Shown: positions 1 through 14,372 of the stretch, one piece after another
Layout: each line of letters opens with the position of its first letter
How positions within the stretch are numbered: position 1 is the stretch's first letter
The notes under the pieces: model-generated
What the model was told of the DNA's origin: nothing
Databases searched by the model: none
What the model saw: the letters and a program-made list of their open reading frames with translations, nothing else
Position numbers and translations under genes: made by a program
Source: Elusimicrobiota bacterium
Lineage (GTDB): Bacteria; Elusimicrobiota; Elusimicrobia; Elusimicrobiales; UBA9959
Assembly: GCA_016208085.1 (NCBI GenBank)
Contig: JACQYT010000096.1
Coordinates: 1-14,372 of the forward strand
DNA: 14,372 bases
Direction of reading: 5' to 3'

Positions 1-27
1 AGGTTTATCTAAGGGACTCCAGGGGAA

Positions 28-140
28 TTTTTAAAATGTCTCGTGTTGTCACTCTCACGAAAAAGCAAGAACTGATTTTGAGGGCCATAGATAAGAAACT
101 CATCAAGTTGTAATGAGTAAAAATCGCCCGGAATTCAGGT
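28..140. repeat. left copy of a ~110-bp imperfect inverted repeat; the right copy is at ~13650..13775 in reverse complement
   Basis: Hand alignment of 28-140 against the reverse complement of 13650-13775 gives about 78% identity across the small ORF. Similarity continues through the shared block aaatc(g/a)(c/g)gcggaattcaggt downstream of the stop codon. Confidence 0.5.
37..111 (+). CDS. small ORF, 25 aa (MSRVVTLTKKQELILRAIDKKLIKL), basic/amphipathic; has a diverged paralog at 13688..13765
   Basis: ATG at 37 and TAA at 109-111, followed immediately by TGA. A second inverted copy at 13688..13765 differs at 15 codons, 11 of them synonymous, which is the pattern expected under purifying selection on a coding sequence. 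The RVVTLT-KKQELILRAIDKK pattern resembles the beta-strand plus helix A of ribbon-helix-helix proteins, but the ORF is too short for a full fold. Confidence 0.4.
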
Positions 141-148
141 GTTATAAT
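140..148 (+). promoter_or_regulatory. extended -10 promoter element TGtTATAAT
   Basis: TGTTATAAT matches TGnTATAAT exactly. It lies about 180 nt upstream of the 326 ATG. The intervening 155-325 is GC-rich with several short hairpins (cccgc-acttca-gcggg, acccc-ttcc-ggggt, accgc-att-gcggt) and may be a structured leader. Confidence 0.3.
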
Positions 149-325
149 ATTCGTGTTCTGCCCGGTTGCGAGTTATTTATGCAAAACCCGGCAGACCCCG
201 CACTTCAGCGGGACCCCTTCCGGGGGTTTACCCACAGGTGGACACCGCATTGCGGTTTCCCCTACCTTTCAGAAAAAGCGCGGGGCGGGTCCGGGCCGCG
301 TTGCGCGCGGAGGGATTTAAGAGCA

Positions 326-885
326 TGCTTTTGGGAAAATTGTTATCGGGTTTAATGACCATCGTTCTTATATGGGGTCTGTATTCGCTGATGATAGCGT
401 TTTTTCCGGTTTTTTCCCGAAGTTGTTTCAGGACGGGCAGGCGGCTGCCCGGCCGCAGCCTGCTCAACGGCGGAGCGTTATTCGGCGGCTCCCTGGCCGT
501 CCTGTTCTGCCTGCTTTTTTTAACCCGCGGGGCCGGCGGCGTCGGCATCGGCGGGATATTCCTTATCTTCCAGATAGCCGGCCTGGCGGTGGGGCTTGTG
601 GCGCTGGGGGGATTGCTCGGGTTTATCGATACTGAAAAAAAACCGTACGGCGCGCTTGCATTGGGTATGGCGATGCTCTGGATCGTGCGGATGTTCTCTG
701 AAGGCGTTTCGAATATACTGTGCCTGCTGATAGGAATATACGGCGTCGGAGCTATAATCCTTTATTTCCGGGGGCAGGCTCCCGAAGCCCCGCGCTCGGA
801 AACGCTTACCGGCATGACGGCGCAGCCGCCTCCCGCGGCGGCGCCGGAACAGAAACCCGGGGCGCCGGAGAAAAAGTATCCCTGA
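326..885 (+). CDS. small integral membrane protein (about 5 predicted TM helices) with a Pro/Ala-rich C-terminal tail; function unknown
   Basis: The ORF track gives 166..885. The first 53 codons are Arg/Pro-rich and not protein-like. An internal ATG at 326 is preceded by GGAGGGA with a 9-nt spacer. The downstream protein is strongly hydrophobic with Gly-rich helices and ends PPPAAAPEQKPGAPEKKYP. Confidence 0.55.
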
Positions 886-909
886 GTTTATGGGCCGAGG
901 TGATTCTCT

Positions 910-1626
910 ATGATTTCTTTTACGACCGTCAGTGAAAAATTCAACCTGGACCTGGAGCCGAACTTCTCGGAATTGCTCGGCGATTATATTTTAAAGAAAT
1001 CAGGCACACAGGCATCCGCCGCCCAGCAGGATTGCATGTCGCGCCGGCTGAAATCCAATAAGCTTTCTTTGATTGGGTTGAAAGATTTGTTGGCCGGGCT
1101 GTCGGTAAAAGCGAGCTGGTGCGGAGAGCCGTCCCTGAAGCAGGGAGAACAGTTAAATCTTACTCATCTGGAGTCGCCGGATTGCGCCATGTCGCAGGGC
1201 TACACTCTTCTGAAAGCCATGTTCAATCAATTCGCGCCTAACGATATGTTCAGGGTCGCCTGGTCGTATATCGCGGAAGACGCCGAAAGAAAATACGGTG
1301 TTTTGTTCATCGAGAGACAGCGGGAGGAGCAAAAACAGGAAGAGAGCGCCATATATGAATTCTGGTCGTTTATTTATGTCAACTCACAGGACCGCATCAC
1401 GCACTACGCTCATCACCTGGATCATTTCGTGCTCGAGAAAAGTCTTCGGATGCAGCTCGTGTTTATGGGGTTCGGCAACACGGGAAACCTTATTGCACAA
1501 TGTAATCGGGATGCGAACCCGATGTTGATGTTCAAATTCAAGAACATCTTTAACAGCATTATCAATCCGCTTTATACATTCGTTCAGGACGGTCCCGGGC
1601 CGGGCGCTAACAGGACCGCGCCCTGA
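910..1626 (+). CDS. hypothetical cytoplasmic protein, 238 aa
   Basis: Long ORF with protein-like composition. GGTGA sits 6 nt upstream of the ATG. It follows the 885 stop after a 24-nt gap, so it is probably co-transcribed. No family recognised. Confidence 0.6.
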   Translation: MISFTTVSEKFNLDLEPNFSELLGDYILKKSGTQASAAQQDCMSRRLKSNKLSLIGLKDLLAGLSVKASWCGEPSLKQGEQLNLTHLESPDCAMSQGYTLLKAMFNQFAPNDMFRVAWSYIAEDAERKYGVLFIERQREEQKQEESAIYEFWSFIYVNSQDRITHYAHHLDHFVLEKSLRMQLVFMGFGNTGNLIAQCNRDANPMLMFKFKNIFNSIINPLYTFVQDGPGPGANRTAP

Positions 1627-1691
1627 TCGCGCGTGGGAGGCCGGCTGAAGCGCCACAAGGTCAATAATTCAACAGCCCGCCCCAGATTTAA

Positions 1692-1749
1692 AAAACCGTC
1701 CGCCTGACCTGCCTGCCGGTAGGCAGGGGCGGACGGTTTTCTTTTAACC
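1692..1749. terminator. bidirectional rho-independent terminator between convergent genes
   Basis: A 13-bp stem (aaaaccgtccgcc at 1692-1704 pairing with ggcggacggtttt at 1728-1740) encloses an inner 6-bp hairpin (cctgcc-ggta-ggcagg). It is followed by ttttctttt on the + strand and preceded by aaaaaa, which supplies the T-tract for the - strand. It sits between the 1626 stop and the 1773 stop. Confidence 0.7.
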
Positions 1750-1772
1750 GGGATTTTTGCCGCGCCGATTTT

Positions 1773-2495
1773 TTACTCCCGGCTGAAGCGTTCGTGGTAG
1801 GCGAAAATTATCGTGCCGCCTTTAAGCGTGTCTATCAGCTTTGTCCGCACCGACAGCTCTACGGCCGGGCAGCCCCAGCTGCGGCCGAGGGGAACTACGG
1901 AGGGGTTCACGTACTGCGCGCCGTGTATTACTATGGCGCGGGCCAAAGCGTTGCTGTTGGCGGAGCTGAGGCCGTGAAGCTTCAGCGAATAACCGTGCTG
2001 GCCGTCATAGGCGCTTCCGGTCCTGAAAAATCCGAGCGAAGTGGCGTGCGTGCCGTCATCATTTGAAAAGACAGTGGCGTAGCCTGTGTGCTTGGGGTCC
2101 GACCCCTTGCCGTGCGCTGCCAGGAACCGCTCCACGGCGCCGGTGCGCATATTGATGATATAAAATCTTTTGTTGTTCGCGTTTTGTGTGTAATCTATCA
2201 CCGACAGGTAGCCGGAATTGGGGATGCCGGCCAAGTTGGCCTTGTAATAACGCAGCGCCGCCGCCAGGGGCTTGGCCGGGACGATATGGCCGGGGTCCAC
2301 ATAGACGAATTCGTCTCCGGCGCGGGCTTCGGCGGCCGGGACGGGCGTTGCCGGCCCGGCCGGGCTTACCGCCGCGTCCAGGCTTTCGTAATTGCCGAGC
2401 AGGTCTTCCAGGGCGGAATTCTGCGCCGAGGCCGCGCCGCCAAAGCAAAGGGCCGCCAGGACCGCCGCCGAAGAGATTAGCAATTGCCTGTTCAT
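1773..2495 (-). CDS. secreted L,D-transpeptidase-like protein (YkuD-type catalytic motif H-x14-S-x-G-C)
   Basis: N-terminal signal peptide MNRQLLISSAAVLAALCFGGAASA-QN. The C-terminal half carries IHGAQYVNPSVVPLGRSWGCPAV, which fits the His...Ser-x-Gly-Cys active-site spacing of L,D-transpeptidase catalytic domains. Family assignment is by motif only. Confidence 0.55.
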   Translation of the reverse strand: MNRQLLISSAAVLAALCFGGAASAQNSALEDLLGNYESLDAAVSPAGPATPVPAAEARAGDEFVYVDPGHIVPAKPLAAALRYYKANLAGIPNSGYLSVIDYTQNANNKRFYIINMRTGAVERFLAAHGKGSDPKHTGYATVFSNDDGTHATSLGFFRTGSAYDGQHGYSLKLHGLSSANSNALARAIVIHGAQYVNPSVVPLGRSWGCPAVELSVRTKLIDTLKGGTIIFAYHERFSRE

Positions 2496-2729
2496 GAGAT
2501 ATTATTGCTGATGCGCGGCTTTCCGGCTAGTGTCAAAAGGTCCTGAATCCATTAGGCCCTTTAGCCCCCGGCAACATATAGATACACTACTTGTAATGGA
2601 GCTTTCCATTTCCCGGCGGTAAAAGACCGAAGGGCCCAGAAGGGCCTATGCCCGCGCCGGGAAATTAAGCGTTTATAAGGCCTAGCCGCGCGTAGGACAA
2701 AAAACTTCGGGAAAATGGGCTATTCGCCT

Positions 2730-2759
2730 CTGACGAAAATCCCGCCCGCGCGCTATACT
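2730..2759 (+). promoter_or_regulatory. candidate sigma70-type promoter (cTGACGa, 17-18 bp spacer, TATACT) giving a leaderless transcript for the 2766 gene
   Basis: TATACT at 2754-2759 ends 6 nt before the ATG at 2766. A TGACG -35-like hexamer lies 17-18 bp upstream. No Shine-Dalgarno (SD) sequence precedes the ATG. The same -10/6 nt/ATG geometry is seen at the toxin gene (6088). Confidence 0.35.
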
Positions 2760-2765
2760 ATTTGC

Positions 2766-5045
2766 ATGACGATCCTTAAACAGCTATCCAAACTCAGTTT
2801 GGCCGCAGTTTCACTCTCGCTTTTCTCCGCCTCCGGAGCAAAAGCCGCCGAGCTCTCTTTCGATGGAATGGACCGCGGGGCCGGCCTGGCCGCCGCGATG
2901 CAGGAACTGAAAGACCGGGCCGCAACCGGGGACGACAGCCGCGCCCCCGTTCCGTCCACCACCACCCAATCCAACGAGCTGACCAACTTTTTTGACCATC
3001 TCAAGGACGGCGCGCTGGACAGCCTCTGCAAAAAGGCGGAGATAAAGCTCAATAAAGACTTCAAACTCGTTGAGGTCATAGGCATAGACGGCGGGCTCAA
3101 GCGACGTCTTAAAGCTTTTCCCGACAAGCGGCTGGCCCTGCTGGACGAGATCAATCTTAAGCTCAGTGTCTCTTTCGGGACCGAAGTGCTGCAAGTGCCC
3201 AATGTCGGCTCTTTGAACATAGGTATAAGCGGCGGCGTGGAAGGCAAGTCGGTCGTCGTCCGCCCGCTGGACAGCACCAGGTACTGCAAGGAACTGGACA
3301 CCCTGATAAAGCTCTACGAGGTAAAGACCGTCCTTCCCGTAACCGCCAAGCGCATAAATAAGATGGAAAAGGGCGAGATCTGGAAGCTGCCAGTGACGGT
3401 CCACTACAGCATCAGCGCCGGAATAGGCACCATGATCAGCGAAGTGGTCAATGTCTCTATCGGGGCCGGCTATACCAGAGCGAAAAAGCCTTCCGTCAGC
3501 CTGTATAAGATGGATGAGAATAATTTAAGGCTGCGCCTGAGGCTGGACTATGTGAAGGTGAAAAGCGTCGGCGTCTCGGCCAACACGGTCGAGGTCCCGG
3601 TCGGCGACATAGGCCTGATCAGCGGTGAGAACCTGATAGCCACCACGGTCAACCGGGAACTGGCCAAAGAAATAAATAAGATGATAGCCTTCAAGTTGGC
3701 CTACAGCCATGCAATGACCAGCGGCCAGAAGCTGCTGCTTGAGTTCTACCTTGACCCCAATAACGCCGAACAGGTGGACAGGCTGGCGGAGTTTCTGCAG
3801 GGCGATTTCAACACTATCCGCAAGTTCATCGCGATGGGGCTGAAGTTCAACACCTTCTCCGAAGAGGCCAGCGGCCAGGCCGGCGTGGGCGAGATAGAGG
3901 AACTGGCGGACCAGGCCGGTTCCGAGCTGAACGCGACCTCCACTTTCGCCGGTTCCGACCACTATAACGGGAACAGCAATAACTTTAATATCAACATACC
4001 GGTCATACATAATCACCAGAACAGCTGGGCCTCCAGCTATCACCGCTACCAATCGCTTAACAACGACGGCGCCACCATCCATGTCCGGCAGCGGACCCGC
4101 GTCTCCAACGGCGATACAATCAACATCCCTTTAATCGGGACGGTGGTCAAGTATAATTCGCAGCAGCATATCTATGCGGTCAACAAGGAAGCCGCCGGCG
4201 GCGAAGTCTCAAGGCCCGTGCTGCTTTACCAGAAGTACGAAGGCTTTCTGCGGCAGGGCGATTCGACGGCACGCGGGATGATAGACGACGCCAATAACGT
4301 GCTGAAATACGCCGGCAGGCAGGGCAACGGCGTTGACATGAGCAACACACTTCCCTCGGCGGCTATCTTCCCGCCGCTGCCGCCCCAGGAATACACCAAT
4401 CAGAACAACGACTACATGCAATCCGACCCTGTAAAGACCTATAAAGCGGCCGTAATGTCCTTTAAGCTGGTATTCGCCCAAACAGCGGTGCAGGACATCA
4501 TCTTCGCGCCGGCCCAACTGATAATGAAATCCTTTATGAACGTGATGCGCGAGACCGAAGCCGCGATCATAGACAAGGTCATGGACCTGTTCACGATAAA
4601 TGAAAAGGGTAAAGTGGATTATGATTATAAGGCCGTGATCAAGCGCCTGGACGTGAGTCCATTCCCCGACAATAACAATAACGGCCAACCGACCCCGCTG
4701 GACATAGTCAGAAACCTGGCCTACGCGGCGACAAAGTTCATTGAAAGGATAGTCAGCGTCAGGGACGAATCCGACTTGAAAGCTCAGTCGGAGCGGCTGG
4801 CCAAGGTGGCCTCAAGCGGCGAGATGAAATACGAGGATTTCCTGAAAGTGGTCATCCAGATGGTGGATGTGAAGGATATTTCTTCCGAGATTTACATCCA
4901 CACCGACAAGCGCGTCAAGGACGAAGAGGACGTGACCCAGACCTACAGCATGTTCAACAACCGCGACAACGGCTTTGACAGCACAATAGCCGACGTGACC
5001 CAGATGCGGGAGCGCTTCAATGACCCCGGCGATCTGACGGACTGA
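2766..5045 (+). CDS. large secreted protein (759 aa) of unknown function, with amphipathic beta-hairpin-like segments
   Basis: Track ORF 2715..5045. The Met at 2766 begins a classical signal peptide (MTILKQLSKLSLAAVSLSLFSASGAKA-AE). There are no further hydrophobic helices. Segments such as VTVHYSISAGIGTMISEVVNVSIGAGYT alternate small/polar and hydrophobic residues. Asn-rich stretches and codon usage are visibly more A/T-rich than the neighbouring genes. Confidence 0.75.
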   Translation: MTILKQLSKLSLAAVSLSLFSASGAKAAELSFDGMDRGAGLAAAMQELKDRAATGDDSRAPVPSTTTQSNELTNFFDHLKDGALDSLCKKAEIKLNKDFKLVEVIGIDGGLKRRLKAFPDKRLALLDEINLKLSVSFGTEVLQVPNVGSLNIGISGGVEGKSVVVRPLDSTRYCKELDTLIKLYEVKTVLPVTAKRINKMEKGEIWKLPVTVHYSISAGIGTMISEVVNVSIGAGYTRAKKPSVSLYKMDENNLRLRLRLDYVKVKSVGVSANTVEVPVGDIGLISGENLIATTVNRELAKEINKMIAFKLAYSHAMTSGQKLLLEFYLDPNNAEQVDRLAEFLQGDFNTIRKFIAMGLKFNTFSEEASGQAGVGEIEELADQAGSELNATSTFAGSDHYNGNSNNFNINIPVIHNHQNSWASSYHRYQSLNNDGATIHVRQRTRVSNGDTINIPLIGTVVKYNSQQHIYAVNKEAAGGEVSRPVLLYQKYEGFLRQGDSTARGMIDDANNVLKYAGRQGNGVDMSNTLPSAAIFPPLPPQEYTNQNNDYMQSDPVKTYKAAVMSFKLVFAQTAVQDIIFAPAQLIMKSFMNVMRETEAAIIDKVMDLFTINEKGKVDYDYKAVIKRLDVSPFPDNNNNGQPTPLDIVRNLAYAATKFIERIVSVRDESDLKAQSERLAKVASSGEMKYEDFLKVVIQMVDVKDISSEIYIHTDKRVKDEEDVTQTYSMFNNRDNGFDSTIADVTQMRERFNDPGDLTD

Positions 5046-5080
5046 GGCGGCCAAGGTTTAAGGAAACGTCACGAAGTGAG

Positions 5081-5118
5081 CGCCCTCCGGGGGACCGGAG
5101 GGCGTTTTATTTGTGTTT
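5081..5118 (+). terminator. rho-independent terminator of the 2766..5045 gene
   Basis: A perfect 10-bp stem cgccctccgg (5081-5090) / ccggagggcg (5095-5104) with loop ggga, followed by ttttatttgtgttt. Confidence 0.85.
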
Positions 5119-5196
5119 CAAGCCAAAATCAACGCGACGTTATGCTGTCTGGGTGGTCTGATAGGATATTTGTGTGGATAATAGGAGGGATAAAAT

Positions 5197-5298
5197 ATGA
5201 CAAAGGATAAAAATATCAAGTCTTTTATGCCCGCTGAAGTGATTGAAAACAAGGGGGGAAAGGTAGCAGGCACCTTTTCTTTATCCTCCGGGCCTTAG
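5197..5298 (+). CDS. small ORF, 33 aa (MTKDKNIKSFMPAEVIENKGGKVAGTFSLSSGP)
   Basis: A GGAGG Shine-Dalgarno at 5184-5188 lies 8 nt upstream of the ATG at 5197. The stop TAG at 5296-5298 lies inside the left terminal repeat of the 5293..5451 element. No homolog recognised, and coding status is uncertain. Confidence 0.3.
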   Translation: MTKDKNIKSFMPAEVIENKGGKVAGTFSLSSGP

Positions 5299-5451
5299 GA
5301 GCCTCCGCAGAATAACTTGGACATCTGGAGGCACAGCCTTGAGTCGGATGCAAGGCGCGACGACGATAGTGTAGCAGCGCTACATTGAGGAGGAGCAACG
5401 CAGCAGCCGGCCAAAGATGTGCCTTCAAGTTATTCTGCGGAGGCTCCTTAG
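5293..5451. mobile_element. MITE-like element of 158 bp with 23-26-bp terminal inverted repeats
   Basis: Left arm aggagcctccgcagaataacttg (5297-5319) is the perfect reverse complement of the right arm caagttattctgcggaggctcct (5426-5448). The outer 3 nt match 2 of 3 (ctt against cta). The ~106-bp core has no long ORF and contains the short hairpin tgtagc-agc-gctaca. A degenerate second copy lies at 13531..13582. Confidence 0.5.
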
Positions 5452-5736
5452 CTCTATTATTAGCTTGCTTTTGACTGCCTGGGAAATCTCCCATAGGGTA
5501 TGGAGAGTGAGATTTTGCCCGCCCCGCTCTATCCGGGAGATAGTCTGCTGTTTCGTCCCCAGTTTCCTTGCCAGTTGAACCTGAGACATATGAGCGCGCT
5601 CGCGCGCCAAGGCAATCTGAACAGCTAAACGCGCTTCAATGTCCGCCTCTTCAAAGGCTTTCCGAAAACCGGGATCTTTTAGATCCTTTCTCAATACCTC
5701 GTTTAACGGAATCCCGGCTTGAATTTTTTTCTTCAT
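5425..5736 (-). CDS. higA: XRE-family helix-turn-helix antitoxin (HigA-like)
   Basis: Contains a canonical HTH (MSQVQLARKLGTKQQTISRIERGGQNLTLHTL). It starts 4 nt after the toxin stop (TAA-cgat-ATG), in the usual toxin-then-antitoxin hig order. The last 9 codons (ELRSLRRIT) are encoded by the right terminal repeat of the MITE-like element. Confidence 0.8.
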   Translation of the reverse strand: MKKKIQAGIPLNEVLRKDLKDPGFRKAFEEADIEARLAVQIALARERAHMSQVQLARKLGTKQQTISRIERGGQNLTLHTLWEISQAVKSKLIIELRSLRRIT

Positions 5737-5740
5737 ATCG

Positions 5741-6088
5741 TTAGTCCCCCTTCCTTCTTAACCAGTTCGCGAATGTCCGCTTGGAACGTTCAATCTCGGA
5801 CTTCGGCGCCACCTGCGTCTTCTTCAAGAAAGCATTGGTTATCAAAATTGTTTTACCACAAATCACATAAAGAAACCGGTGTTGATGATGCTCTATCGCA
5901 GGGCGAAGCTCACGGACATTCCTTTCCAACACATCGGCATAAGGCCTTGGTAAATTCGGTCCGTACTCCTGTAATAATGTAAGCCATTTCTTTGCTTTCG
6001 CCTCATGTTTTCTATTTAGGCTTTTAAGATAGTCTAAAGGCTGGCTGCATCCGTTTTCGTCCTGGTAGAATACGACTGTATAATCCAT
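5741..6088 (-). CDS. higB: RelE/ParE-superfamily toxin of the Gp49/HigB type (phage-related-protein family)
   Basis: The protein MDYTVVFYQDENGCSQPLDYLKSL...RELRP...HRFLYVICGKTILITNAFLKKTQVAPKSEIERSKRTF matches the Gp49-like HigB toxin pattern. The track ORF starts 6 codons upstream (6106), but those codons contain the -10 box. The start was placed at 6088 so the mRNA is leaderless. Confidence 0.8.
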   Translation of the reverse strand: MDYTVVFYQDENGCSQPLDYLKSLNRKHEAKAKKWLTLLQEYGPNLPRPYADVLERNVRELRPAIEHHQHRFLYVICGKTILITNAFLKKTQVAPKSEIERSKRTFANWLRRKGD

Positions 6089-6094
6089 AATATT

Positions 6095-6123
6095 AGTATA
6101 CAGCATATACGCTGTTTTGTCAA
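6095..6123 (-). promoter_or_regulatory. near-consensus sigma70 promoter (TTGACA, 17 bp spacer, TATACT) for higBA with a leaderless start
   Basis: Read on the minus strand: TTGACA (6123-6118), a 17-nt spacer, then TATACT (6100-6095). The -10 ends 6 nt before the ATG at 6088, so transcription is predicted to start at or next to the start codon. Confidence 0.6.
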
Positions 6124-6514
6124 GGGGGAAAGCAGGCGCCTTTTCCGGGTGTCTTTTTCCGCAGTGGAACTTCGTGATTATAAGTTGGCTGCGACCTTGG
6201 GGGTGGGGATGGATTTATCATCTGGGTTGGAATAAATATACAAAAAATAGCTGACCAAAAGGCCAGCCGGGGGGCGGCGGGGGTTTGCTGGTGCACGCCT
6301 TTCCGGCTTTCGGCCAAACTGTTGGAGCGAACCGCTATCATTCGGCGGCGGCGAGGACCGTATGTTCAAGCCGTCCGCCTAAAGCGGACGGCACGTTCCA
6401 CAGCCGGCGGAAACGGCTTGGCCGCTTCCCCATAAAGCCGGTCCCGGCGTGCGAGCGGCAAAACCCCGCCGGCACCCCGACCAATTATACAATAAGCGTT
6501 AGTATTGGAAAAAA

Positions 6515-7579
6515 TCAGTGTTTTATCTTTGAGTCCACGCCGAAGATGTGGGAGATCAGGGCGGCCCGGGCCCACATGCCGTTGCGCTCCTGGCGCCAGA
6601 AAACGGCGCGCGGGTCTTCGTCCACCGAAACCTCTATCTCGTGGCGCCGCGGGAGCGGGTGCATGATAACGCAGGTCTTCTTAATGACCTTTAGATGTTC
6701 ATGTTTGAAATAAAAAGGGGAATAATCCACTTTTTTTGACTCGCCGGACTTGTCGTGCTCGTCCTGGATGCGGGTCATGTAAATAGCGTCCGCGCCGTCC
6801 ATCACCGATGAAAAATCCCCGGTCTCGGTATACGGCATCTTGTGCCGCTTTAAAAACTCCAGGATGTCCTGTTCCATCCGGAACTGCTCCGGGGACACGA
6901 AGGCCAGCTTTATGTTCTTATAGTTTTTCATCAGGTAAGTGAGCGAACGTACGGTTCTGCCGCGCTTTAAATCTCCGACCATCACTATCGTTTTATTGTC
7001 CATCTCGCCGTTAAAACTCCTGTAAAGCGTGTAGGTGTCAAGCAACGCCTGGGTCGGGTGCTGGTCCTTGCCCGAGCCGCCGTTTATGATCGGCACCGGC
7101 CTGTTGGTGCGGTTCATCAACCAGGCCGTTTTCTCCACGAAACCGGGCGCCGGATGCCGCATGATTATTAGGTCGACGTAGCTTGAGAACGTGCGCACGG
7201 TGTCCTCGGGGCTTTCGCCCTTCACTTCGGAGGAAGTGGAGGTGTCGCGTATCTCGGAGATCTTTATCCCCAGGATATGACAGGCGTTCAGAAAAGAAAG
7301 GAAAGTTCTGGTGGACGGCTGGACGAAATAAAGCATCGCCCGCCTGTCGGACAAAAGGTTGGAGACGAAGTCCATGCCTTCTTTATGCTGCGTCAGCGTC
7401 CTTAAAGCCTCGGCCGTCTTAAAAAGATTGGTCAGGATCTCGCGGTTGAACTGCTGGGCGAAAAGGCAGTCGTAAAGACGGCCCTCTTTGGCGAAAAAAG
7501 GCAACTTTTCCGAGATTTCTTTTGAGTAAAACTCGTCCCAATTGGCGTTTATGCTGGTCATCACCGGGGTTCTTTCCAT
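6515..7579 (-). CDS. aspartate/ornithine carbamoyltransferase-family protein of the ATCase type, divergent, with an N-terminal extension of about 45 aa
   Basis: Carries the signature motifs STRTF (canonical is STRTR), HPTQ, HPLP (ATCase-type; OTCases have HCLP) and YMTRIQDEH (canonical is TRxQxER). It is the last gene of the flotillin operon. The start at 7579 is preferred over 7561, with a weak AAGGCGG SD. Confidence 0.75.
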   Translation of the reverse strand: MERTPVMTSINANWDEFYSKEISEKLPFFAKEGRLYDCLFAQQFNREILTNLFKTAEALRTLTQHKEGMDFVSNLLSDRRAMLYFVQPSTRTFLSFLNACHILGIKISEIRDTSTSSEVKGESPEDTVRTFSSYVDLIIMRHPAPGFVEKTAWLMNRTNRPVPIINGGSGKDQHPTQALLDTYTLYRSFNGEMDNKTIVMVGDLKRGRTVRSLTYLMKNYKNIKLAFVSPEQFRMEQDILEFLKRHKMPYTETGDFSSVMDGADAIYMTRIQDEHDKSGESKKVDYSPFYFKHEHLKVIKKTCVIMHPLPRRHEIEVSVDEDPRAVFWRQERNGMWARAALISHIFGVDSKIKH

Positions 7580-7627
7580 TTTACCGCCTTGTGCGTTATC
7601 CCTCGCCGACCCTGTGCCGGGAAAAAG

Positions 7628-8242
7628 TCAGTTGGAAGCGTCCTGTTCCGGAAGCGGCGGCGGGGGGATGGTCCGGGGCATAGCGACGGCGCCCGCCGCG
7701 CCGGGGCCGCTGTCCCAGCCACCGGGCTTTTCCACTAGGTCCACCAGCCTCAGGTTCCCCAGGCCGTCCACTTTGACCCGCGCGACGAATTTGCCGCTGT
7801 TCCAGTTCTTCCGCTGGTCGTCCTCGCTGACGAAATATTTTTCTATGCCGTAGCGCAGCTGGGGGCCGCCCCAGCGGCCCTGCCTTTGGCCGCGGACCCA
7901 GAGCTTCCCGTCGGAGGCCGGCTTTTCCTCCGCGCAGGCCTGGGACCCGTACACCGGTAATTCCTGTCCGCCCGCGCTGACCGTCCTGCCCGTCGGCGAC
8001 AGGTGCACGTGGACGGGGTCTTTCCGTTCCGCCAGGACCCTTTCGCAATTGGTTCCCTTCGGGGTGGCGATTTCGTACCTGAGCGCCAGGTAGGTGCCGC
8101 TCAGCAGGTCCCGCGGATCCACCGGGAGCGTGTCCAGGCAGAACTCGGCCACGGACCGGGACGAGAAAGAGAAAAGCCAGCCGGCCCAGGCGACGAAGAA
8201 AGCGAGCTGCAGGATGATCACGAGGCGGAGCTTGTTATTCAT
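7628..8242 (-). CDS. GDYXXLXY-domain membrane-anchored protein
   Basis: An N-terminal TM helix is followed by VDPRDLLSGTYLALRYEI, which matches the DPRDLLRGDYxxLRY core of the GDYXXLXY family. AGGAGG lies just upstream. The start overlaps the upstream gene's stop by 8 nt. Confidence 0.7.
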   Translation of the reverse strand: MNNKLRLVIILQLAFFVAWAGWLFSFSSRSVAEFCLDTLPVDPRDLLSGTYLALRYEIATPKGTNCERVLAERKDPVHVHLSPTGRTVSAGGQELPVYGSQACAEEKPASDGKLWVRGQRQGRWGGPQLRYGIEKYFVSEDDQRKNWNSGKFVARVKVDGLGNLRLVDLVEKPGGWDSGPGAAGAVAMPRTIPPPPLPEQDASN

Positions 8243-9587
8243 GCTGCCTCCTGGCGTTGGCGGCTTCTATCAGCGATTTTCGTGTTTTGTTCAGGAAATA
8301 AGCCAGGGCGCCCAGCACCAGCCCGCTGACGATGAAAGCCATGCCGGTCTTCATCAGCGTTCCGAAGATATCCATGAACCGGGTGATGATGATAAGAAAG
8401 ATGACGGCGACCCCGCCGTTGATGCGTTTCTCGTCCGATTCCATCGAGCCGGAAACGATCAGGCCGAGCCCCGAGAGGATGATAAGAGCATTCGCTATAA
8501 CCGCTATAGGCTTGGCCCCGGCCTCGGTGGCTCCGAACATCAAGAAGGCGGAGACCATCGAGATGAGCAGCAGGGCTTTGGCCGCCCAGTCTGCGGTCTT
8601 TCCGCTCCCTCCGGCTTTGACCGGCCTTAACACCGTCAGGGCCACGGCCACGGCGAAAATGATCAAGGCCGCGACGACTCCGGAGGGGGAATCCTCCCCG
8701 CGCGGCGCATAGGAAGGCTTGTAGTGCCAGAAGAACGTCATGCCGTAGACCACGGCGAACCAGGCGAGCATGGGCAGTCGCCCCGGCCCTTCGCCGATGG
8801 AGCTGATGCCCAGCCACAGTACCGTCAGCGACGCGGCCGCCAGCAGAATGAACGCCGGGCTGTGCAGCTGGAAGAAGGTGGGGCTCACCAGCGCTATGAA
8901 GAGCCATATCAGCGTTCCGCCAGCGACCCTGTCGCGCCAGGCGAAGGCCTTGAGGCGCGCGAAATATACCCAGAACAGCGCGCAGAATACGAGAAGCACG
9001 GCCAGCCAATGCGTCCAGGGAAAAGCAAAGTCCCCGGAAGTGAACCGCCACTCGACCAGCGAGAACATATTGTTCGGCCGGAAAGCCCCGAAGTAAGCCA
9101 CGCCGAGGAGCAGGACCATAGACAGCGCCGCTGCGATCCTGCGCCCGGTGAAGAAGGCCAGCGGCAGGGAAATCAGCGCCCAGGCGGCGAACGGCTTGAC
9201 CGGGTCGCCGGAGAGCTGGAATACCTGCGCGTAGAGGCCTATGCCGATGGGTGGCATGAAGAACCAGATCACCTCGGCCGGGATGCCGACCGCGGGCTTG
9301 TCCTCCCAGCGTATCGCCGCCTCGGCGACGGCGGCGTAGGCCGCCAGGAAAACCGCTACCTTCGCGATAGCGCCTATCTTGTCCCAGTTGTGCGCGATTA
9401 TAAGGGAGAGGCCGCCGGCGATGAAAATGCCGGCTATGATGCTTATCCAGTGCGCCGCTTTGAACGAGGCGAACAGGCGCTGCGCGTAGATGTTTTCATA
9501 CAGCGCGTCCGCTTGCTGCGGGGTTATAGTCCCCGATGCGGCGGCCGCCGCGAGGTCCCGCTTAAGGCGCTTGTAATAGGAGGCCAT
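8235..9587 (-). CDS. polytopic membrane protein of the DUF2157 type (likely with a fused DUF4401-like region)
   Basis: The N-terminus (MASYYKRLKRDL...TITPQQADALYENI followed by a TM-rich region with NWDKIG) resembles the DUF2157 family, which is typically encoded next to GDYXXLXY proteins. It has at least 10 predicted TM helices. Assigned from recalled family features, with no search run. Confidence 0.65.
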   Translation of the reverse strand: MASYYKRLKRDLAAAAASGTITPQQADALYENIYAQRLFASFKAAHWISIIAGIFIAGGLSLIIAHNWDKIGAIAKVAVFLAAYAAVAEAAIRWEDKPAVGIPAEVIWFFMPPIGIGLYAQVFQLSGDPVKPFAAWALISLPLAFFTGRRIAAALSMVLLLGVAYFGAFRPNNMFSLVEWRFTSGDFAFPWTHWLAVLLVFCALFWVYFARLKAFAWRDRVAGGTLIWLFIALVSPTFFQLHSPAFILLAAASLTVLWLGISSIGEGPGRLPMLAWFAVVYGMTFFWHYKPSYAPRGEDSPSGVVAALIIFAVAVALTVLRPVKAGGSGKTADWAAKALLLISMVSAFLMFGATEAGAKPIAVIANALIILSGLGLIVSGSMESDEKRINGGVAVIFLIIITRFMDIFGTLMKTGMAFIVSGLVLGALAYFLNKTRKSLIEAANARRQHE

Positions 9588-9598
9588 TCAACTCGTCC

Positions 9599-11668
9599 CT
9601 ATTTCTTCTTCGTATCGTCGTCCCTGACGATCTTCATGCCGCCGGTCATCAGGCTGCCTATGAAAGCGGAAAGCATATTATTGCCGCCGCCGTCCGCGCC
9701 GCTGTTCACCACGACGTCCGGGGTTATCTTCACCTTGCCGTTGGAAACCTGTTTCATCACTTCTATCACGGACATCGGGGCCTGCCCGAGCGCCAGCGCC
9801 TGTTTGGTGTAGGCTTCAGCGGTCGCCTGCCCGATGGCGCGTATCTTTTCGCCCTCGGCCCGGCCTACGGCTTCAATGCCGGCGGCTATGCCTTCCTGCT
9901 CAAGCTTCGTGCTCTGCCCTTTGCCCTCGGCCAGGGTTATGGACTGCTGCTTCTGCTGGGTCGCTATCTGCACGTCTATCTCCGCCCTCACGAGATTGGG
10001 CTGCAAATCCGCCTGGGCTTTGGTCTTTTCCATTTCTTTGCGGCGGCCCTCGGCTTCCTGCTGCGCGTCGAACATGGATTTTTGCTGGGTGGCGACCACC
10101 TTGTTGGTCAGCGTCTGCATCAGCCTTTCCGGCAGCTTTATCTGGCAGATCAGCACGCTGACGCATTCCACGTAATATTTTTCAAGCTCCTCCATTATAT
10201 GCTGCTCGGCCTTACGCTGCTGCTCGTGACGGTCCTGCATGAACATCATCGCCTCGGAAGAGGAGGCCTGGTTTCTGAACGAACTGTCCACCAGCGGGTG
10301 AATGACCGCCTCTATCAGGTTGTTGATGGTGCCGATCCTGGCCACCATGTGCGGCGCCTGCTGCGGCTGGACCCGCAGTATGACCTTTACTTCCACGGTC
10401 ATCTCAAAACCGTCTTTTGAGACGATGGCCAGCGGGTCGAAAACCATCGGCACCCGCGTATCCGACTTCTGCTCCGCCCAGTCTATCGTGATGTTGGTGG
10501 TGGGGATTATATGCGGAGTGAAGGCCAGCTTGTTCAGATAATAGGTGCCGGGGCCCAGCACTTCGCGCTGTATGCCGCGGTAGCCCGGCTCCACCACATA
10601 ACGCTCCACGCCGACCTTTATCGGGTCCGGGGAGCCCGGCTGGGGTTTCGGAAGAATCGAAATCGGGTCCTTGCCGACGTTGGAAACTATTACCGCCACC
10701 TCGCCACGCTGCACCATCAGCACGTCGTCTAAGGTTGCGTCGAACATCAGCGGGTTTATATAGAAAGTGCCTGGCTTCAGGAAGTCAAACTGCGGGCCGC
10801 GCTGGCCGGCGTTGGCAAGAAAGGCCGCCGAATCCTGGAATTCGCCGGTGTTGCTGACGCTCCTGGCCACGTATTCGCCCAGCGGCAGTTGTTCGCCGTC
10901 GCGGGCGGTGACCAGCCCCACTTTTTTGGTCGGGATCACGGTGGCGTCTTTTATGACGACGTTGAACAGTTTTGAGTTTATCCGGTAGGAGCCCGGCAAA
11001 AGGATATCTATCTGCGGACCCTTCTGCCCGCCGTTCTCAAGGAAGGCCTGGCCGTTCTGGAAATTATCATGCCCCGCCGTTTTCTTGCCCAGCAGCCGCC
11101 CCGGGGCTATGGGCTGGCCGTCGGTTGCCACGGCTACGCCTATCTGGTTGTTCGGGATCCTGATTATCGGGGCCTTTGCCACTTTGAAAAGGTAAGGGTT
11201 GATCCTGTAAAGCCCGGGCGGCAGCAACTGGACCTGGGGACCCTTGTTCCCGCCGTTCCGCAGGAAGACCTCGCCTTCCTGGAAGAGATCGTGTCCTTCA
11301 ATAACCCCGCCGAAGATCTTTCCCGGGGCTACCGGCAGGCCGTCTATGGATTCCACGAGGCCCACTTCGTTCTCGCCGATAGTCGTCATCGGATGTTTTT
11401 CAACGCGGTAAAGGAAAGGGATCAGCAGGTGAAGGCCCGGCGGCAGGATCCTGGCCTGTATGCCGACTTCGTCCGGCATGGCGGCCACGCGGCCGCGGGG
11501 CATATTCTTTCCCAGCCAGCGCCGCTCTAAAACGGCAATCTGCGCTCCGCCCACCACGACGAAAGCGTTATAAAGAATGATAAAGACAAATAATATAAGG
11601 AATGCGGCCAGTATGGTCGTGCCCCCGCTGGCATTCAGTGCGTCCAGCAGCGCGGAAATATTGAGCAT
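9599..11668 (-). CDS. SPFH/Band-7 flotillin-family protein (YqiK-like), 689 aa, with internal tandem ~75-aa repeats
   Basis: N-terminal TM anchor. Four tandem repeats share G..D.FQ.G..FL.N.G..GPQ...L.PG.YRIN..LF. The C-terminus is an Ala/Glu/Lys/Gln-rich coiled coil (AEGEKIRAIGQATAEAYTKQALALGQ) typical of flotillins. A GGAGG SD lies 6 nt upstream of the ATG. Confidence 0.85.
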   Translation of the reverse strand: MLNISALLDALNASGGTTILAAFLILFVFIILYNAFVVVGGAQIAVLERRWLGKNMPRGRVAAMPDEVGIQARILPPGLHLLIPFLYRVEKHPMTTIGENEVGLVESIDGLPVAPGKIFGGVIEGHDLFQEGEVFLRNGGNKGPQVQLLPPGLYRINPYLFKVAKAPIIRIPNNQIGVAVATDGQPIAPGRLLGKKTAGHDNFQNGQAFLENGGQKGPQIDILLPGSYRINSKLFNVVIKDATVIPTKKVGLVTARDGEQLPLGEYVARSVSNTGEFQDSAAFLANAGQRGPQFDFLKPGTFYINPLMFDATLDDVLMVQRGEVAVIVSNVGKDPISILPKPQPGSPDPIKVGVERYVVEPGYRGIQREVLGPGTYYLNKLAFTPHIIPTTNITIDWAEQKSDTRVPMVFDPLAIVSKDGFEMTVEVKVILRVQPQQAPHMVARIGTINNLIEAVIHPLVDSSFRNQASSSEAMMFMQDRHEQQRKAEQHIMEELEKYYVECVSVLICQIKLPERLMQTLTNKVVATQQKSMFDAQQEAEGRRKEMEKTKAQADLQPNLVRAEIDVQIATQQKQQSITLAEGKGQSTKLEQEGIAAGIEAVGRAEGEKIRAIGQATAEAYTKQALALGQAPMSVIEVMKQVSNGKVKITPDVVVNSGADGGGNNMLSAFIGSLMTGGMKIVRDDDTKKK

Positions 11669-11747
11669 AAGAACCTCCGTTACCCCGAAAATACCGCTGA
11701 ACTTATTCTAGCTTATTTTACCCCCCGGAATAAAAATCCTTTTTAGA

Positions 11748-11776
11748 TTGTTCTGGGCGGGGATGTTTTATAGAAT
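11748..11776 (+). promoter_or_regulatory. candidate promoter (TTGTTC, 17 bp spacer, TAGAAT) for a leaderless 11785 gene
   Basis: TAGAAT at 11771-11776 ends 8 nt before the ATG at 11785, and a TTGTTC -35-like hexamer lies 17 bp upstream. No SD. It is located in the divergent intergenic region shared with the flotillin operon. Confidence 0.3.
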
Positions 11777-11784
11777 CTAACTGG

Positions 11785-13536
11785 ATGAAAGGCCTTATTC
11801 AGGACAAAGTTTCAAAGGTGTTTATTTTCGCGGGCGCGGCGCTGGCGGTGTCGGCGGTTTTTCTGCCGGTGATAAACCCGGACCTGTTCTGGCACCTGTC
11901 GGCGGGCCGGTATATGTTTGAACATCTCGCCGTGCCGCGCGCCGATTTTCTTTCCTGGACGATGCACGGCCGCCCCTGGCTGGATTTTGAGTGGCTGGCC
12001 CAGCTTATCTACTACGGGCTGTTCCTGAAAGGGGGGATGGCGGCGCTTTTCGCGTTCAAGGCCCTCATTCTGGCCCTCGCTGTTTTCGCGTTTTTTAAAA
12101 TAATAAAACTTCACCGGTCCGAAGATTCCGCTTTTTTTCTGCTGCCGTTATTCGCGGCCGGCCTTGTGACCAATTCCGACCTGCGGCCGGAGAACTTTTC
12201 AGTGCTGTTCTTCGTCCTGGTTTTCCGGCGGCTTGAGGTGATAAGGCTTAACCCATCTTACAGGCCGTTCGCCGCGGAACTGGCCTGGGCCGCGGCATTT
12301 TTCGCTTTCTGGACGAACCTGCACGCCGGGTACCTTTACGGCGCCGTACTTATAGCGTTTTATGCGGCCGGAAGTTTTTTTGAGGAAGCGCTGCCTTTCA
12401 TATACGGCCATAAATCCCGTATCCCCTTAGGCAAATGGGCGCAGTACCTTAAACTCCTGGCAGCGGGGGGCGCCGCAAGCCTGATAAACCCGTACGGGGC
12501 GCGGCTCTATGAGGTCATAGCCAATCACCTGCGGTACACAGACGTCCTGCAGGAATATATACAGGAATGGAAGCCGTTCGATCTGACCAATATCTACCAG
12601 TGGCCCTACCTGGCGCTTATGGGGCTGGCTTTCGGCCTGACGCTTTACAGGTTCTTAAAGACCAGGACCATGGTCTACGAGCATCTTATCGCGCTGCTGT
12701 TCTTTGCTTATTTCTCCTCAAATCACGCGCGCCACACGCCGTTTTTCTCGGTCACCGCGGCCGTCTGCCTGGCTGCGCTGCCGCTCTCCGCCGTTATGCG
12801 CCCCGTCCTTCGGGTGGTTTTTAAAATCTCCGTCATAGCCGTTTTCGCCGTTTATTACAGGACTTTTGTCTGGAGCCAGTATTCCGGCGTCGCGCGGTTC
12901 AATAATTATTCCGAAGGCCTGGCCGGATTTCTGCGGCACAACGCCGACCGCCTGGCCGGGCTTAAGATGTTCAACTACTGGGGCTGGGGCGGCTACCTCG
13001 GCTTCGCGCTTTCTCCACGGTACAGGGTGTTCGCGGACGGCAGATATATTTTCCACGAGTTTCTGGAAGAAATGGAAAATTCCCGGAACAGTCCGTCGGT
13101 CTGGGAAAATTTCAATCGCAAGTACGGCTTTGAGCTGATGGTGCTGAACAGGGATAAGACCAAAATAACGGTCAAACAGCGCCTTAAAAGCGGCCGCGAA
13201 ATAATTTCCCGGCGTCCCGCCTATCTCTTTTACCTGCCCAAAAAAGACTGGGCGGTCGTCTATTGGGATATAAAGACCCTCGTCCTGGTGAAGCGGGACG
13301 CCGCGGACGCGGCCTGGCTGGCCGGCAATGAATATAAGGTATTAAGACCGGACGACATGAACAATGTCGCGGCCGCCGCGCTTGACGGCGAGATAAGAAT
13401 GGGCGAGATAAACGGGGAAGCGCAAAGGTTAATGGGCCGGGCCGACGCCCCCGGACCGGCAAAGAACTATCTGGCGGACTGGCTGAAGCTTCTGGAAAAT
13501 CTCTGCAAGGAAAAGAACGCCAAATGCAAACCTTAG
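11785..13536 (+). CDS. polytopic integral membrane protein; GT-C-fold glycosyltransferase-like by inference
   Basis: 583 aa with about 10 TM helices in the N-terminal two-thirds and a soluble C-terminal domain. The first extracytoplasmic loop carries NPDLFWHLSAGRYM...DFLSWT..GRPWLDFEWL, an Asp-containing aromatic motif typical of GT-C enzymes. The specific family was not identified. Confidence 0.7.
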   Translation: MKGLIQDKVSKVFIFAGAALAVSAVFLPVINPDLFWHLSAGRYMFEHLAVPRADFLSWTMHGRPWLDFEWLAQLIYYGLFLKGGMAALFAFKALILALAVFAFFKIIKLHRSEDSAFFLLPLFAAGLVTNSDLRPENFSVLFFVLVFRRLEVIRLNPSYRPFAAELAWAAAFFAFWTNLHAGYLYGAVLIAFYAAGSFFEEALPFIYGHKSRIPLGKWAQYLKLLAAGGAASLINPYGARLYEVIANHLRYTDVLQEYIQEWKPFDLTNIYQWPYLALMGLAFGLTLYRFLKTRTMVYEHLIALLFFAYFSSNHARHTPFFSVTAAVCLAALPLSAVMRPVLRVVFKISVIAVFAVYYRTFVWSQYSGVARFNNYSEGLAGFLRHNADRLAGLKMFNYWGWGGYLGFALSPRYRVFADGRYIFHEFLEEMENSRNSPSVWENFNRKYGFELMVLNRDKTKITVKQRLKSGREIISRRPAYLFYLPKKDWAVVYWDIKTLVLVKRDAADAAWLAGNEYKVLRPDDMNNVAAAALDGEIRMGEINGEAQRLMGRADAPGPAKNYLADWLKLLENLCKEKNAKCKP

Positions 13537-13582
13537 GAGCCTCCGCATACTTTGTGTCAGAAAAATTCTTCGGAGGTTTGCC
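13531..13582. repeat. degenerate short copy of the 5293..5451 element's terminal repeats
   Basis: ccttaggagcctccgca (13531-13547) is identical to 5293-5309. An attcttcggaggtttgcc segment (13565-13582) resembles the right-arm sequence attctgcggaggctcct. The TAG stop of the upstream gene lies within the repeat in this copy, and the same is true for the 5197..5298 ORF and the repeat at 5293. Confidence 0.4.
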
Positions 13583-13649
13583 GAAAGAATGTCAAAATAG
13601 CCGCGCACTACCCTGGGCGAAATGCCGGCTTCCCTGGCCACATTGGCGT

Positions 13650-13775
13650 AATTACCTGAATTCCGCCTGATTTGTGTACACAACACTTTACAATTTCAGC
13701 AACTTCTTGTCGATGGTCTTCAAAATTAGTTCCTGTTTTTTTGTGAGCGTTACAACACGAGACAGTGTGAAACCT
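13650..13775. repeat. right, reverse-complement copy of the window-terminal inverted repeat (partner of 28..140)
   Basis: See feature 28..140. The copy contains the second small ORF. Confidence 0.5.
13688..13765 (-). CDS. second copy of the small ORF (LSRVVTLTKKQELILKTIDKKLLKL), with CTG in place of ATG
   Basis: Identical length and a conserved stop position relative to 37..111. Divergence is dominated by synonymous third-position changes (non-synonymous changes: R to K, A to T, I to L). The start codon is CTG in this copy, so expression is uncertain. Confidence 0.3.
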   Translation of the reverse strand: MSRVVTLTKKQELILKTIDKKLLKL

Positions 13776-14250
13776 TTTTTAAAATCCCGCAGGCAACAGG
13801 ATCCGGCGACAGATAATGCGGGGGAAGAAGGCCGGAAACCATAATATTTTCCAGGCTGAAGCCTTCCGTTTCCATGTGGGCCTTTCAGGATGAAGTTCGA
13901 ACCTACTTCGCGCAACATCCCGAGGAAACTTTATAAATTCCGCTTTTCCGGTCGTTCCCCGCGCTCCAGGGCGATTACCGCGAGATGCCGCACGGTCCGC
14001 AGGCTCGCCCACTCGCCGGCCCATTGGTGGGCCGGCTCCGGGCTCGCTCTGCTCCAGCGGAAACAGAGTTGTTTTTCATCTCATCACCCCCGGTTGCGCG
14101 GCCGGTTGGTCCCAACAGGCCTTCCCCGCCCGCTCCCGGCTTCGCCGTATAAATCGGAAAATTATCGCCCGCGCCCACTACAAAAAAAAGATCACAAAGA
14201 CTTCAGAATTGTTGTCATATAAGTTCAGGCTTAGGAATTTCAATGTTTGC

Positions 14251-14323
14251 TGTAGCGGTCGCATTCATGCGACGAATTTGTGCGATAAATCGCACCGCTA
14301 CAAAAGTTGCCCCCGAAGGGGGC
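14251..14323 (+). ncRNA. candidate small structured RNA or protein-binding palindrome, followed by a GC hairpin
   Basis: A 9-bp outer stem (tgtagcggt at 14251-14259 pairing with accgctaca at 14294-14302) encloses two similar hairpins, gtcgca-ttca-tgcgac and gtgcga-taaa-tcgcac. A 6-bp GC hairpin gcccccgaagggggc (14309-14323) follows. The unit is flanked by direct repeats TAGGAATTTC at 14232-14241 and 14338-14347. Strand is undetermined because the structure is near-palindromic. Confidence 0.3.
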
Positions 14324-14372
14324 CTAATTTAATACTATAGGAATTTCCTTTTTTGACAGTCGTAAGCCGTAA

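Follow-up and report, generated by a model that had tools for sequence, protein, structure and literature searches.

A DUF2157–GDYXXLXY membrane-protein gene pair directly upstream of pyrB in one clade of Elusimicrobia

We analyzed a 14,372-nt stretch of DNA (the window; positions 1 to 14,372, forward strand, of contig JACQYT010000096.1, assembly GCA_016208085.1) from an Elusimicrobiota bacterium, in which four minus-strand genes form a row ending in pyrB, the gene for the catalytic chain of aspartate carbamoyltransferase (ATCase). The original prediction, made from the letters alone, described this row as an operon of a flotillin, a DUF2157-type membrane protein, a GDYXXLXY protein and a divergent ATCase-like enzyme. 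The open reading frame (ORF) listing bears out the four co-directional genes with their coordinates and spacing, and all four families (Band_7, DUF2157, GDYXXLXY and OTCace_N/OTCace) score above their Pfam gathering cut-offs (23.6, 32.4, 27 and about 29-30 bits, respectively). Each of the four is a real gene for which numerous homologs exist. The same contig segment was also assembled from an independent sample/run (L001; L numbers denote loci throughout). The row and its immediate surroundings comprise the following features:

11669..11784, no strand assigned: AT-rich divergent intergenic region of 116 nt between unk583 (plus strand) and the SPFH gene (minus strand), from reading of the sequence
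9599..11668, minus strand: SPFH/Band_7 membrane protein, 689 aa (Pfam Band_7, hydropathy)
8235..9587, minus strand: DUF2157 polytopic membrane protein, 450 aa, about 11 transmembrane (TM) helices (Pfam, hydropathy)
7628..8242, minus strand: GDYXXLXY protein, 204 aa, with an N-terminal TM anchor at residues 2-28 (Pfam, structure model)
7580..7627, minus strand: GDYXXLXY-pyrB spacer, 48 nt, holding the pyrB ribosome-binding site AAGGCGG
6515..7579, minus strand: pyrB, 354-aa catalytic chain of ATCase; its 34-aa N-terminal extension is typical of the clade (Pfam, TIGR00670)
6249..6268, minus strand: terminator-like hairpin with a T-run, about 250 nt past the pyrB stop (terminator scan)

The genes are tightly packed: DUF2157 starts 11 nt beyond the SPFH stop, the DUF2157 and GDYXXLXY genes overlap by 8 nt, and a 48-nt gap precedes pyrB. 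Shared strand and short or overlapping junctions, as expected of an operon, are found for all four genes; conserved order across genomes is found for DUF2157-GDYXXLXY-pyrB (12/12 loci, one clade) and not for the SPFH gene. Scanning with a sigma-70 consensus, from which Elusimicrobia promoters may differ, revealed no convincing promoter or terminator on the minus strand inside the row and no match within 11669..11784. Judged from its position and AT-richness alone, the latter is the likely promoter region of the four-gene row, and a GGAGG ribosome-binding site precedes the SPFH ATG; the hairpin at 6268-6249 is likely to mark the end of the transcription unit. On these sequence features, co-transcription of the row is plausible. 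A known RNA regulator ahead of pyrB (PyrR site or riboswitch) was rejected, as neither the window nor any of four related loci has an Rfam match. An anti-phage defense system was likewise rejected, the six proteins scanned having no PADLOC match, and no tRNA was found in the window.

We then asked how far this arrangement is conserved. Pair loci were collected by a metagenome scan with the DUF2157 protein as query and by look-ups of GDYXXLXY homologs, which yielded 12 distinct loci with enough downstream sequence (window/L001, L087, L088, L089/90, L091, L092, L094, L095, L096, L100, L104 and L105). All 12 carry DUF2157, GDYXXLXY and pyrB in that order on one strand, with a DUF2157/GDYXXLXY overlap of 4-8 nt and a gap of 12-280 nt to the conserved pyrB start. 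An ATCase gene thus recurrently follows the pair within one Elusimicrobia clade, which answers the neighborhood check proposed with the original prediction. The gene upstream of the pair is of at least six kinds (unk583, cysS, MFS, a 1128-aa gene, others and SPFH), and the pair-pyrB junction is the sole junction unbroken in the 12 loci. An earlier idea that the adjacency to pyrB was specific to the window, drawn from ATCase-anchored neighborhoods, was overturned by the DUF2157-anchored metagenome scan.

Other pyrB orthologs, 73-86% identical to the window ATCase, have no DUF2157/GDYXXLXY gene upstream; cysS (L003/L004, L098), a divergent unk583 ortholog (L005, L099) or another gene (L006, L101) occupies that place. 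ATCase identity to the window is 85% in L098, 84% in L003, 82% in L099 and 79% in L005, all pair-less, and 77-93% in pair-bearing loci; L100, an ATCase-anchored locus at 77%, has DUF2157-GDYXXLXY upstream. In a neighbor-joining tree of ATCases, pair-bearing loci form one clade in which the pair-less L005, L099 and L003/L098 are nested, and the pair-less L101, L006 and L102 fall outside. Because pair-less genes sit both within the pair-bearing clade and among its outgroups, the simplest history is one gain of the pair followed by at least three losses. The L005 locus reads unk583-ortholog(-), pyrB(+), unk776-ortholog(-), which is the window minus its three membrane genes and its toxin-antitoxin pair. 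Two genes flanking the row enter this comparison:

11785..13536, plus strand: unk583, a 583-aa conserved membrane protein with several TM helices, divergent from the row; no Pfam family
2715..5045, plus strand: unk776, a 776-aa conserved protein, convergent with pyrB; no Pfam family

An unk583 ortholog directly adjoins pyrB, in divergent orientation, in L005 and L099. Next to pyrB, unk776 is retained in 8 of 11 pair-bearing loci, a frequency that does not differ significantly from 12/12 (Fisher one-sided p = 0.093). All pair loci share one ancestral arrangement and are therefore not independent observations; further, because unk776 is convergent and cannot share the pyrB operon, yet is often retained, synteny inertia explains most of the linkage signal. 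An unbroken pair-pyrB junction is also what would be expected if an essential distal gene needed transcription reading through from upstream, with or without cooperation between the products. The GC content at third codon positions (GC3) of the pair follows that of the host locus in every related locus, indicating a long-resident pair and not a recent import. We considered a recently imported cassette, since the membrane genes have a GC content of 0.59-0.66 compared with 0.53 for pyrB, and rejected it: most of that difference comes from the first two codon positions, and GC3 is host-like.

Relatives of the window carry a GC-rich element of two hairpins, CCAGCMGGCG...CGCCCGCTGG followed by AACCGC...GCGGTT, placed after the GDYXXLXY stop and ahead of the pyrB ribosome-binding site:

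L089:11828-11890, L091:11828-11889, L094:11830-11895, L096:1697-1759, L100:5927-5985, L104:6512-6574 and L105:5175-5237: two-hairpin element, absent from the window

It occurs in seven to eight relatives, as a single copy per locus with invariant stems and variable loops, and has no Rfam match. It might act as a leader or attenuator for pyrB, or as a partial terminator.

The last gene of the row encodes, as far as sequence can tell, an ordinary and intact housekeeping PyrB ortholog, and nothing indicates a new enzyme. OTCace_N (109.7 bits, 1.7e-31, residues 39-186) and OTCace (97.8 bits, 8.6e-28, residues 195-344) together span the whole protein, which at 257.5 bits clears the 236.95-bit cut-off of TIGR00670, the NCBIfam equivalog for PyrB, and scores far under the cut-offs of the ornithine carbamoyltransferase (OTCase), putrescine carbamoyltransferase (PTCase), acetylornithine carbamoyltransferase and YgeW models. 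All 42 sequence matches in the PDB are ATCases, the best being Arabidopsis PYRB (6yw9, 2e-62) and the ATCase domain of human CAD (5g1n). Seven ligand motifs, STRT at 89, KGE at 120, MRH at 140, HPTQ at 174, GDLKRGRTVRS at 202, TRIQ at 269 and HPLPR at 307, line up with Arabidopsis PYRB and persist in 116-120 of the 120 nearest homologs. The carbamoyl-phosphate ligands of the E. coli enzyme (S52-T53-R54-T55, R105, H134, Q137 and P266-L267) correspond to these motifs, as do its aspartate ligands K84, R167, R229 and Q231 (GRT, TRIQ, KGE). The description of the enzyme as divergent is thus not upheld. Identity to these 120 homologs is 61-90%; their length is about 353-358 aa, and they stem overwhelmingly from Elusimicrobia metagenome-assembled genomes (MAGs). 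The 60-90% identity seen across the phylum points to strong purifying selection of the kind that a housekeeping enzyme typically shows.

The protein shares with PyrB of TIGR00670 the two-domain OTCace_N/OTCace architecture, the equivalog score and the carbamoyl-phosphate and aspartate motifs. It differs from textbook PyrB in its 34-aa N-terminal extension, in reading STRTF instead of STRTR (R56 of E. coli is F here), in lacking a neighboring pyrI or other pyr gene and, in this one Elusimicrobia clade, in sitting behind two membrane-protein genes. The extension, M.RT..MTS....W..F...SEK.PFF.K.GRLYDCLF, is conserved across Elusimicrobia in pair-bearing and pair-less genomes alike, and STRTF is common to the whole clade. 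That the gene stands outside any pyrimidine context, as the original prediction observed, is correct in that no pyr gene adjoins it; this is not unusual, however, as the sampled pair-less orthologs are placed in the same way. The window copy groups with ordinary pyrB orthologs, an outcome that the prediction itself had named, jointly with the lack of any other pyrB in the genome, as pointing to the housekeeping enzyme. A further ATCase, at L102:6001-7248, is 65-67% identical and has a still longer N-terminus; its contig encodes a TFIIB-domain protein and looks archaeal.

The two membrane proteins ahead of pyrB belong to a recurrent pair, as the original prediction had stated. Besides the 12 Elusimicrobia loci, it occurs in Calothrix (L023), whose two members both pass Pfam, and more weakly in L103, where the order is the same and the upstream partner is a weak match to a local hidden Markov model with no Pfam hit. 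Neither of these distant pairs, L023 and L103, has an ATCase beside it. The DUF2157 protein matches its family over residues 17-151 (70.7 bits, 1.4e-19) and has orthologs of 45-84% identity in L087-L097, L100, L104 and L105. A DUF4401 domain, which had been proposed as a check, was not matched by Pfam in the full protein at E ≤ 0.01 or in residues 142-450 at E ≤ 10, and no transporter family was matched on the protein even at E ≤ 10. The GDYXXLXY protein (72.8 bits) is modeled as a confident beta-rich domain (predicted local distance difference test score, pLDDT, 82.9), consistent with an extracytoplasmic location of that domain. Two of its cysteines are conserved, and its PVDPRD..G and YGIEK motifs are invariant. 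The eponymous motif reads G-T-Y-L-A-L-R-Y in the window and SGTYxALxY in the clade, with D replaced by T throughout the Elusimicrobia clade. Residues 172-204 (7628-7726, minus strand) form a disordered, Pro/Gly-rich, low-confidence tail that the window shares with its close relatives alone; the C-terminus of most orthologs comes about 30 residues earlier, so the window ORF seems to have grown into former intergenic DNA.

Overlap of the GDYXXLXY start with the DUF2157 stop suggests translational coupling and, because such a stop/start overlap is present in all pair loci, a stoichiometric two-protein membrane complex; from this gene arrangement, the DUF2157 and GDYXXLXY proteins probably form one complex. 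Other pairs of DUF2157 (PF09925) and GDYXXLXY (PF14345) share the order, the tight coupling and the succession of a polytopic and a membrane-anchored protein. By contrast, the SGTYxALxY motif is a mark of the Elusimicrobia clade, and the downstream pyrB is specific to it. A tblastn search of PLSDB with both proteins found no plasmid relatives. In the literature we found almost nothing on the SPFH, DUF2157 and GDYXXLXY family names together. DUF2157 has been classed together with the LiaI/LiaF TM domain (PMC11237479), and a Fusobacterium nucleatum FtsX/EnvC pull-down list includes one SPFH and one GDYXXLXY protein (PMC5915739), which we regard as a lead and not as evidence.

The first gene of the row was predicted to encode a flotillin coupled to the pair. 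Its product is an SPFH/Band_7 protein (71.9 bits, 8.7e-20, with the Band_7 core at residues 358-543) anchored by a single N-terminal TM helix (residues 21-39) and ending in a charged, probably coiled-coil C-terminus; the Flot domain was not detected in the C-terminal 223 aa at E ≤ 10, so that the assignment is supported at the level of SPFH/Band_7 but not of flotillin. NCBIfam gives only a sub-threshold HflC match (17.5 against 134.4 bits), and in the PDB the sequence matches QmcA alone, and weakly (3e-5). Anchor, core and charged helical C-terminal region are shared with bacterial SPFH proteins (QmcA, HflK/C, YqiK/flotillin-like), whereas the protein differs from flotillin and HflC in lacking a Flot domain, in falling far below the HflC cut-off and in bearing repeats between anchor and core. 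These are four to five tandem 74-aa repeats at residues ~40-392, with LxPGxYxINP at 151, 225, 299 and 373. In form they are similar to the SPFH domain's first beta unit; they lie ahead of the Band_7 core, which is all that Pfam detects.

Homologs of this SPFH protein, of ~690 aa and at least 68% identity in Elusimicrobia, elsewhere usually stand alone with no conserved partner. Homologs ~70% identical also occur in MAGs labeled Deltaproteobacteria, Oligoflexia, Fibrobacteres, Actinomycetota and FCPU426 (L011, L012, L019; P0194, P0200, P0217), the L019 gene being broken into two ORFs. Because this cross-phylum identity exceeds that of the ATCase, horizontal transfer is suggested. The gene adjoins the pair only in the window/L001 and in L097, where the gap to DUF2157 is 12 nt. 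In L087, whose ATCase is 93% identical to that of the window, unk583 is followed by DUF2157 with no SPFH gene between, and in L013 unk583 is followed by an SPFH gene within which the contig stops. Neither the pair nor an ATCase adjoins an SPFH homolog in any of 80 loci from other representative genomes, whose neighbors vary; among these 80, Calothrix L023 is alone in having the pair within 10 kb, at a distance of 3.5 kb and with unrelated genes between. There (Calothrix sp. NIES-4105, L023:9791-18166), a 920-aa SPFH gene is followed by FHA-kinase, FHA-regulator and RsmB-like genes and then by DUF2157 and GDYXXLXY, a proximity that is probably coincidence. The proposed coupling to a membrane-microdomain scaffold is thus not recurrent, and the SPFH link is, on this distribution of sequences, a recent local addition in the window's sub-lineage.

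The remainder of the window holds genes outside the row:

5425..6106, minus strand: HigB-like (Gp49/DUF891) toxin and helix-turn-helix (HTH) antitoxin pair (Pfam Gp49; HTH_3/HTH_31 on L001)
1773-2495, minus strand: YkuD_2 L,D-transpeptidase (Pfam, 6.9e-47)
166-885 and 910-1626, plus strand: two ORFs of ~239 aa before the YkuD_2 gene, with no family match

The toxin-antitoxin pair is inserted between pyrB and unk776, is missing there in relatives and has a GC3 of ~0.5 against 0.70-0.85 in its neighbors; it alone looks foreign. A strong sigma-70-like promoter match lies close to it, at 6123-6095. The unk583 and unk776 genes are syntenic with pyrB across the clade, with unk776 tandemly duplicated in L094, and neither protein has a Pfam, NCBIfam or PADLOC match. 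Lenient Pfam scans of both proteins, of the C-terminal part of the DUF2157 protein and of the SPFH repeats found no hidden domains.

Taken together, these observations are best explained, with a probability we put moderately above even, if a housekeeping pyrB came to stand last in a lineage-specific operon that also encodes an uncharacterized, dispensable two-protein membrane complex. In the ancestor of one clade, a DUF2157/GDYXXLXY module would have arrived directly upstream of pyrB on the same strand, and from then on some or all of the transcription of pyrB probably came from the module's unit, with pyrB at its distal end. Shared transcription would hold the three genes together while the flanks rearranged, and the module, being dispensable, could have been deleted several times with pyrB left unchanged. 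In the window's sub-lineage, a horizontally mobile, usually stand-alone SPFH gene would later have been placed 11 nt upstream of the pair. We infer that the complex has no biochemical link to pyrimidine synthesis. Several points weigh against this history: the spacer before pyrB in L092 is 280 nt long, AT-rich and looks like a separate promoter; the linkage in 12/12 loci through at least six upstream flanks could reflect a functional tie; and the conserved two-hairpin element in seven to eight relatives shows that the pair-pyrB junction is under constraint.

The latter two points lead to the alternative that the complex serves, or is co-regulated with, pyrimidine synthesis, for example as a transporter or sensor of aspartate or a pyrimidine precursor, or through an envelope function whose demand for uridine diphosphate (UDP) or cytidine diphosphate (CDP) precursors is matched via co-expression with pyrB. 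The pair lies directly upstream of pyrB in every locus of the clade however the upstream neighbor differs, the ~11 TM helices of the DUF2157 protein are compatible with a transporter, and, in seven to eight relatives, a conserved structured element separates the pair from the pyrB ribosome-binding site. We nevertheless consider such a tie unlikely. At least three losses of the pair have occurred, and the pyrB orthologs left behind show no sequence change; distant DUF2157/GDYXXLXY pairs have no ATCase nearby, the DUF2157 protein matches no transporter family, and the non-operonic unk776 is kept in most pair-bearing loci as well, among loci that are not independent.

Slightly less probable still is a purely positional adjacency, in which pyrB is driven by its own promoter and the gene order is no more than the legacy of a common ancestor. 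The entire neighborhood is syntenic, the opposite-strand unk583 and unk776 included, pyrB owns a ribosome-binding site, and the pre-pyrB spacer varies from 12 to 280 nt, reaching a promoter-like, AT-rich form in L092. By contrast, the spacer is just 48 nt in the window, where the coding strand shows neither a promoter nor a terminator consensus, and 12 nt in L095, and the pair-pyrB junction is never broken in the 12 loci. The proposal of a pseudoenzyme, of a moonlighting role or of carbamoyl transfer to a non-aspartate substrate within a membrane module could appeal to the extension foreign to textbook ATCases, to the F in place of E. coli R56 and to the tight packing against envelope-protein genes, but it is very improbable given a passed PyrB equivalog with OTCase, PTCase and YgeW far below their cut-offs, seven intact motifs for both carbamoyl phosphate and aspartate (GRT, TRIQ, KGE), phylum-wide purifying selection, and an extension and STRTF that are clade-wide and recur in the archaeal contig and in pair-less genomes, whose orthologs are 73-85% identical.

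Because the carbamoyltransferase is a normal PyrB, the locus has little consequence for enzymology. It is doubtful that the complex is tied to de novo pyrimidine synthesis, as a precursor transporter or sensor or as a membrane partner of ATCase, with the SPFH scaffold joining in the window's lineage; if true, however, that tie would give a first way into the function of two widespread, uncharacterized families. The clade-specific DUF2157-GDYXXLXY-pyrB order offers a weak but testable lead on these two uncharacterized membrane-protein families, and it is also a cautionary case, in that operon-like packing with a housekeeping gene can come from descent and recent insertion and does not imply shared function.

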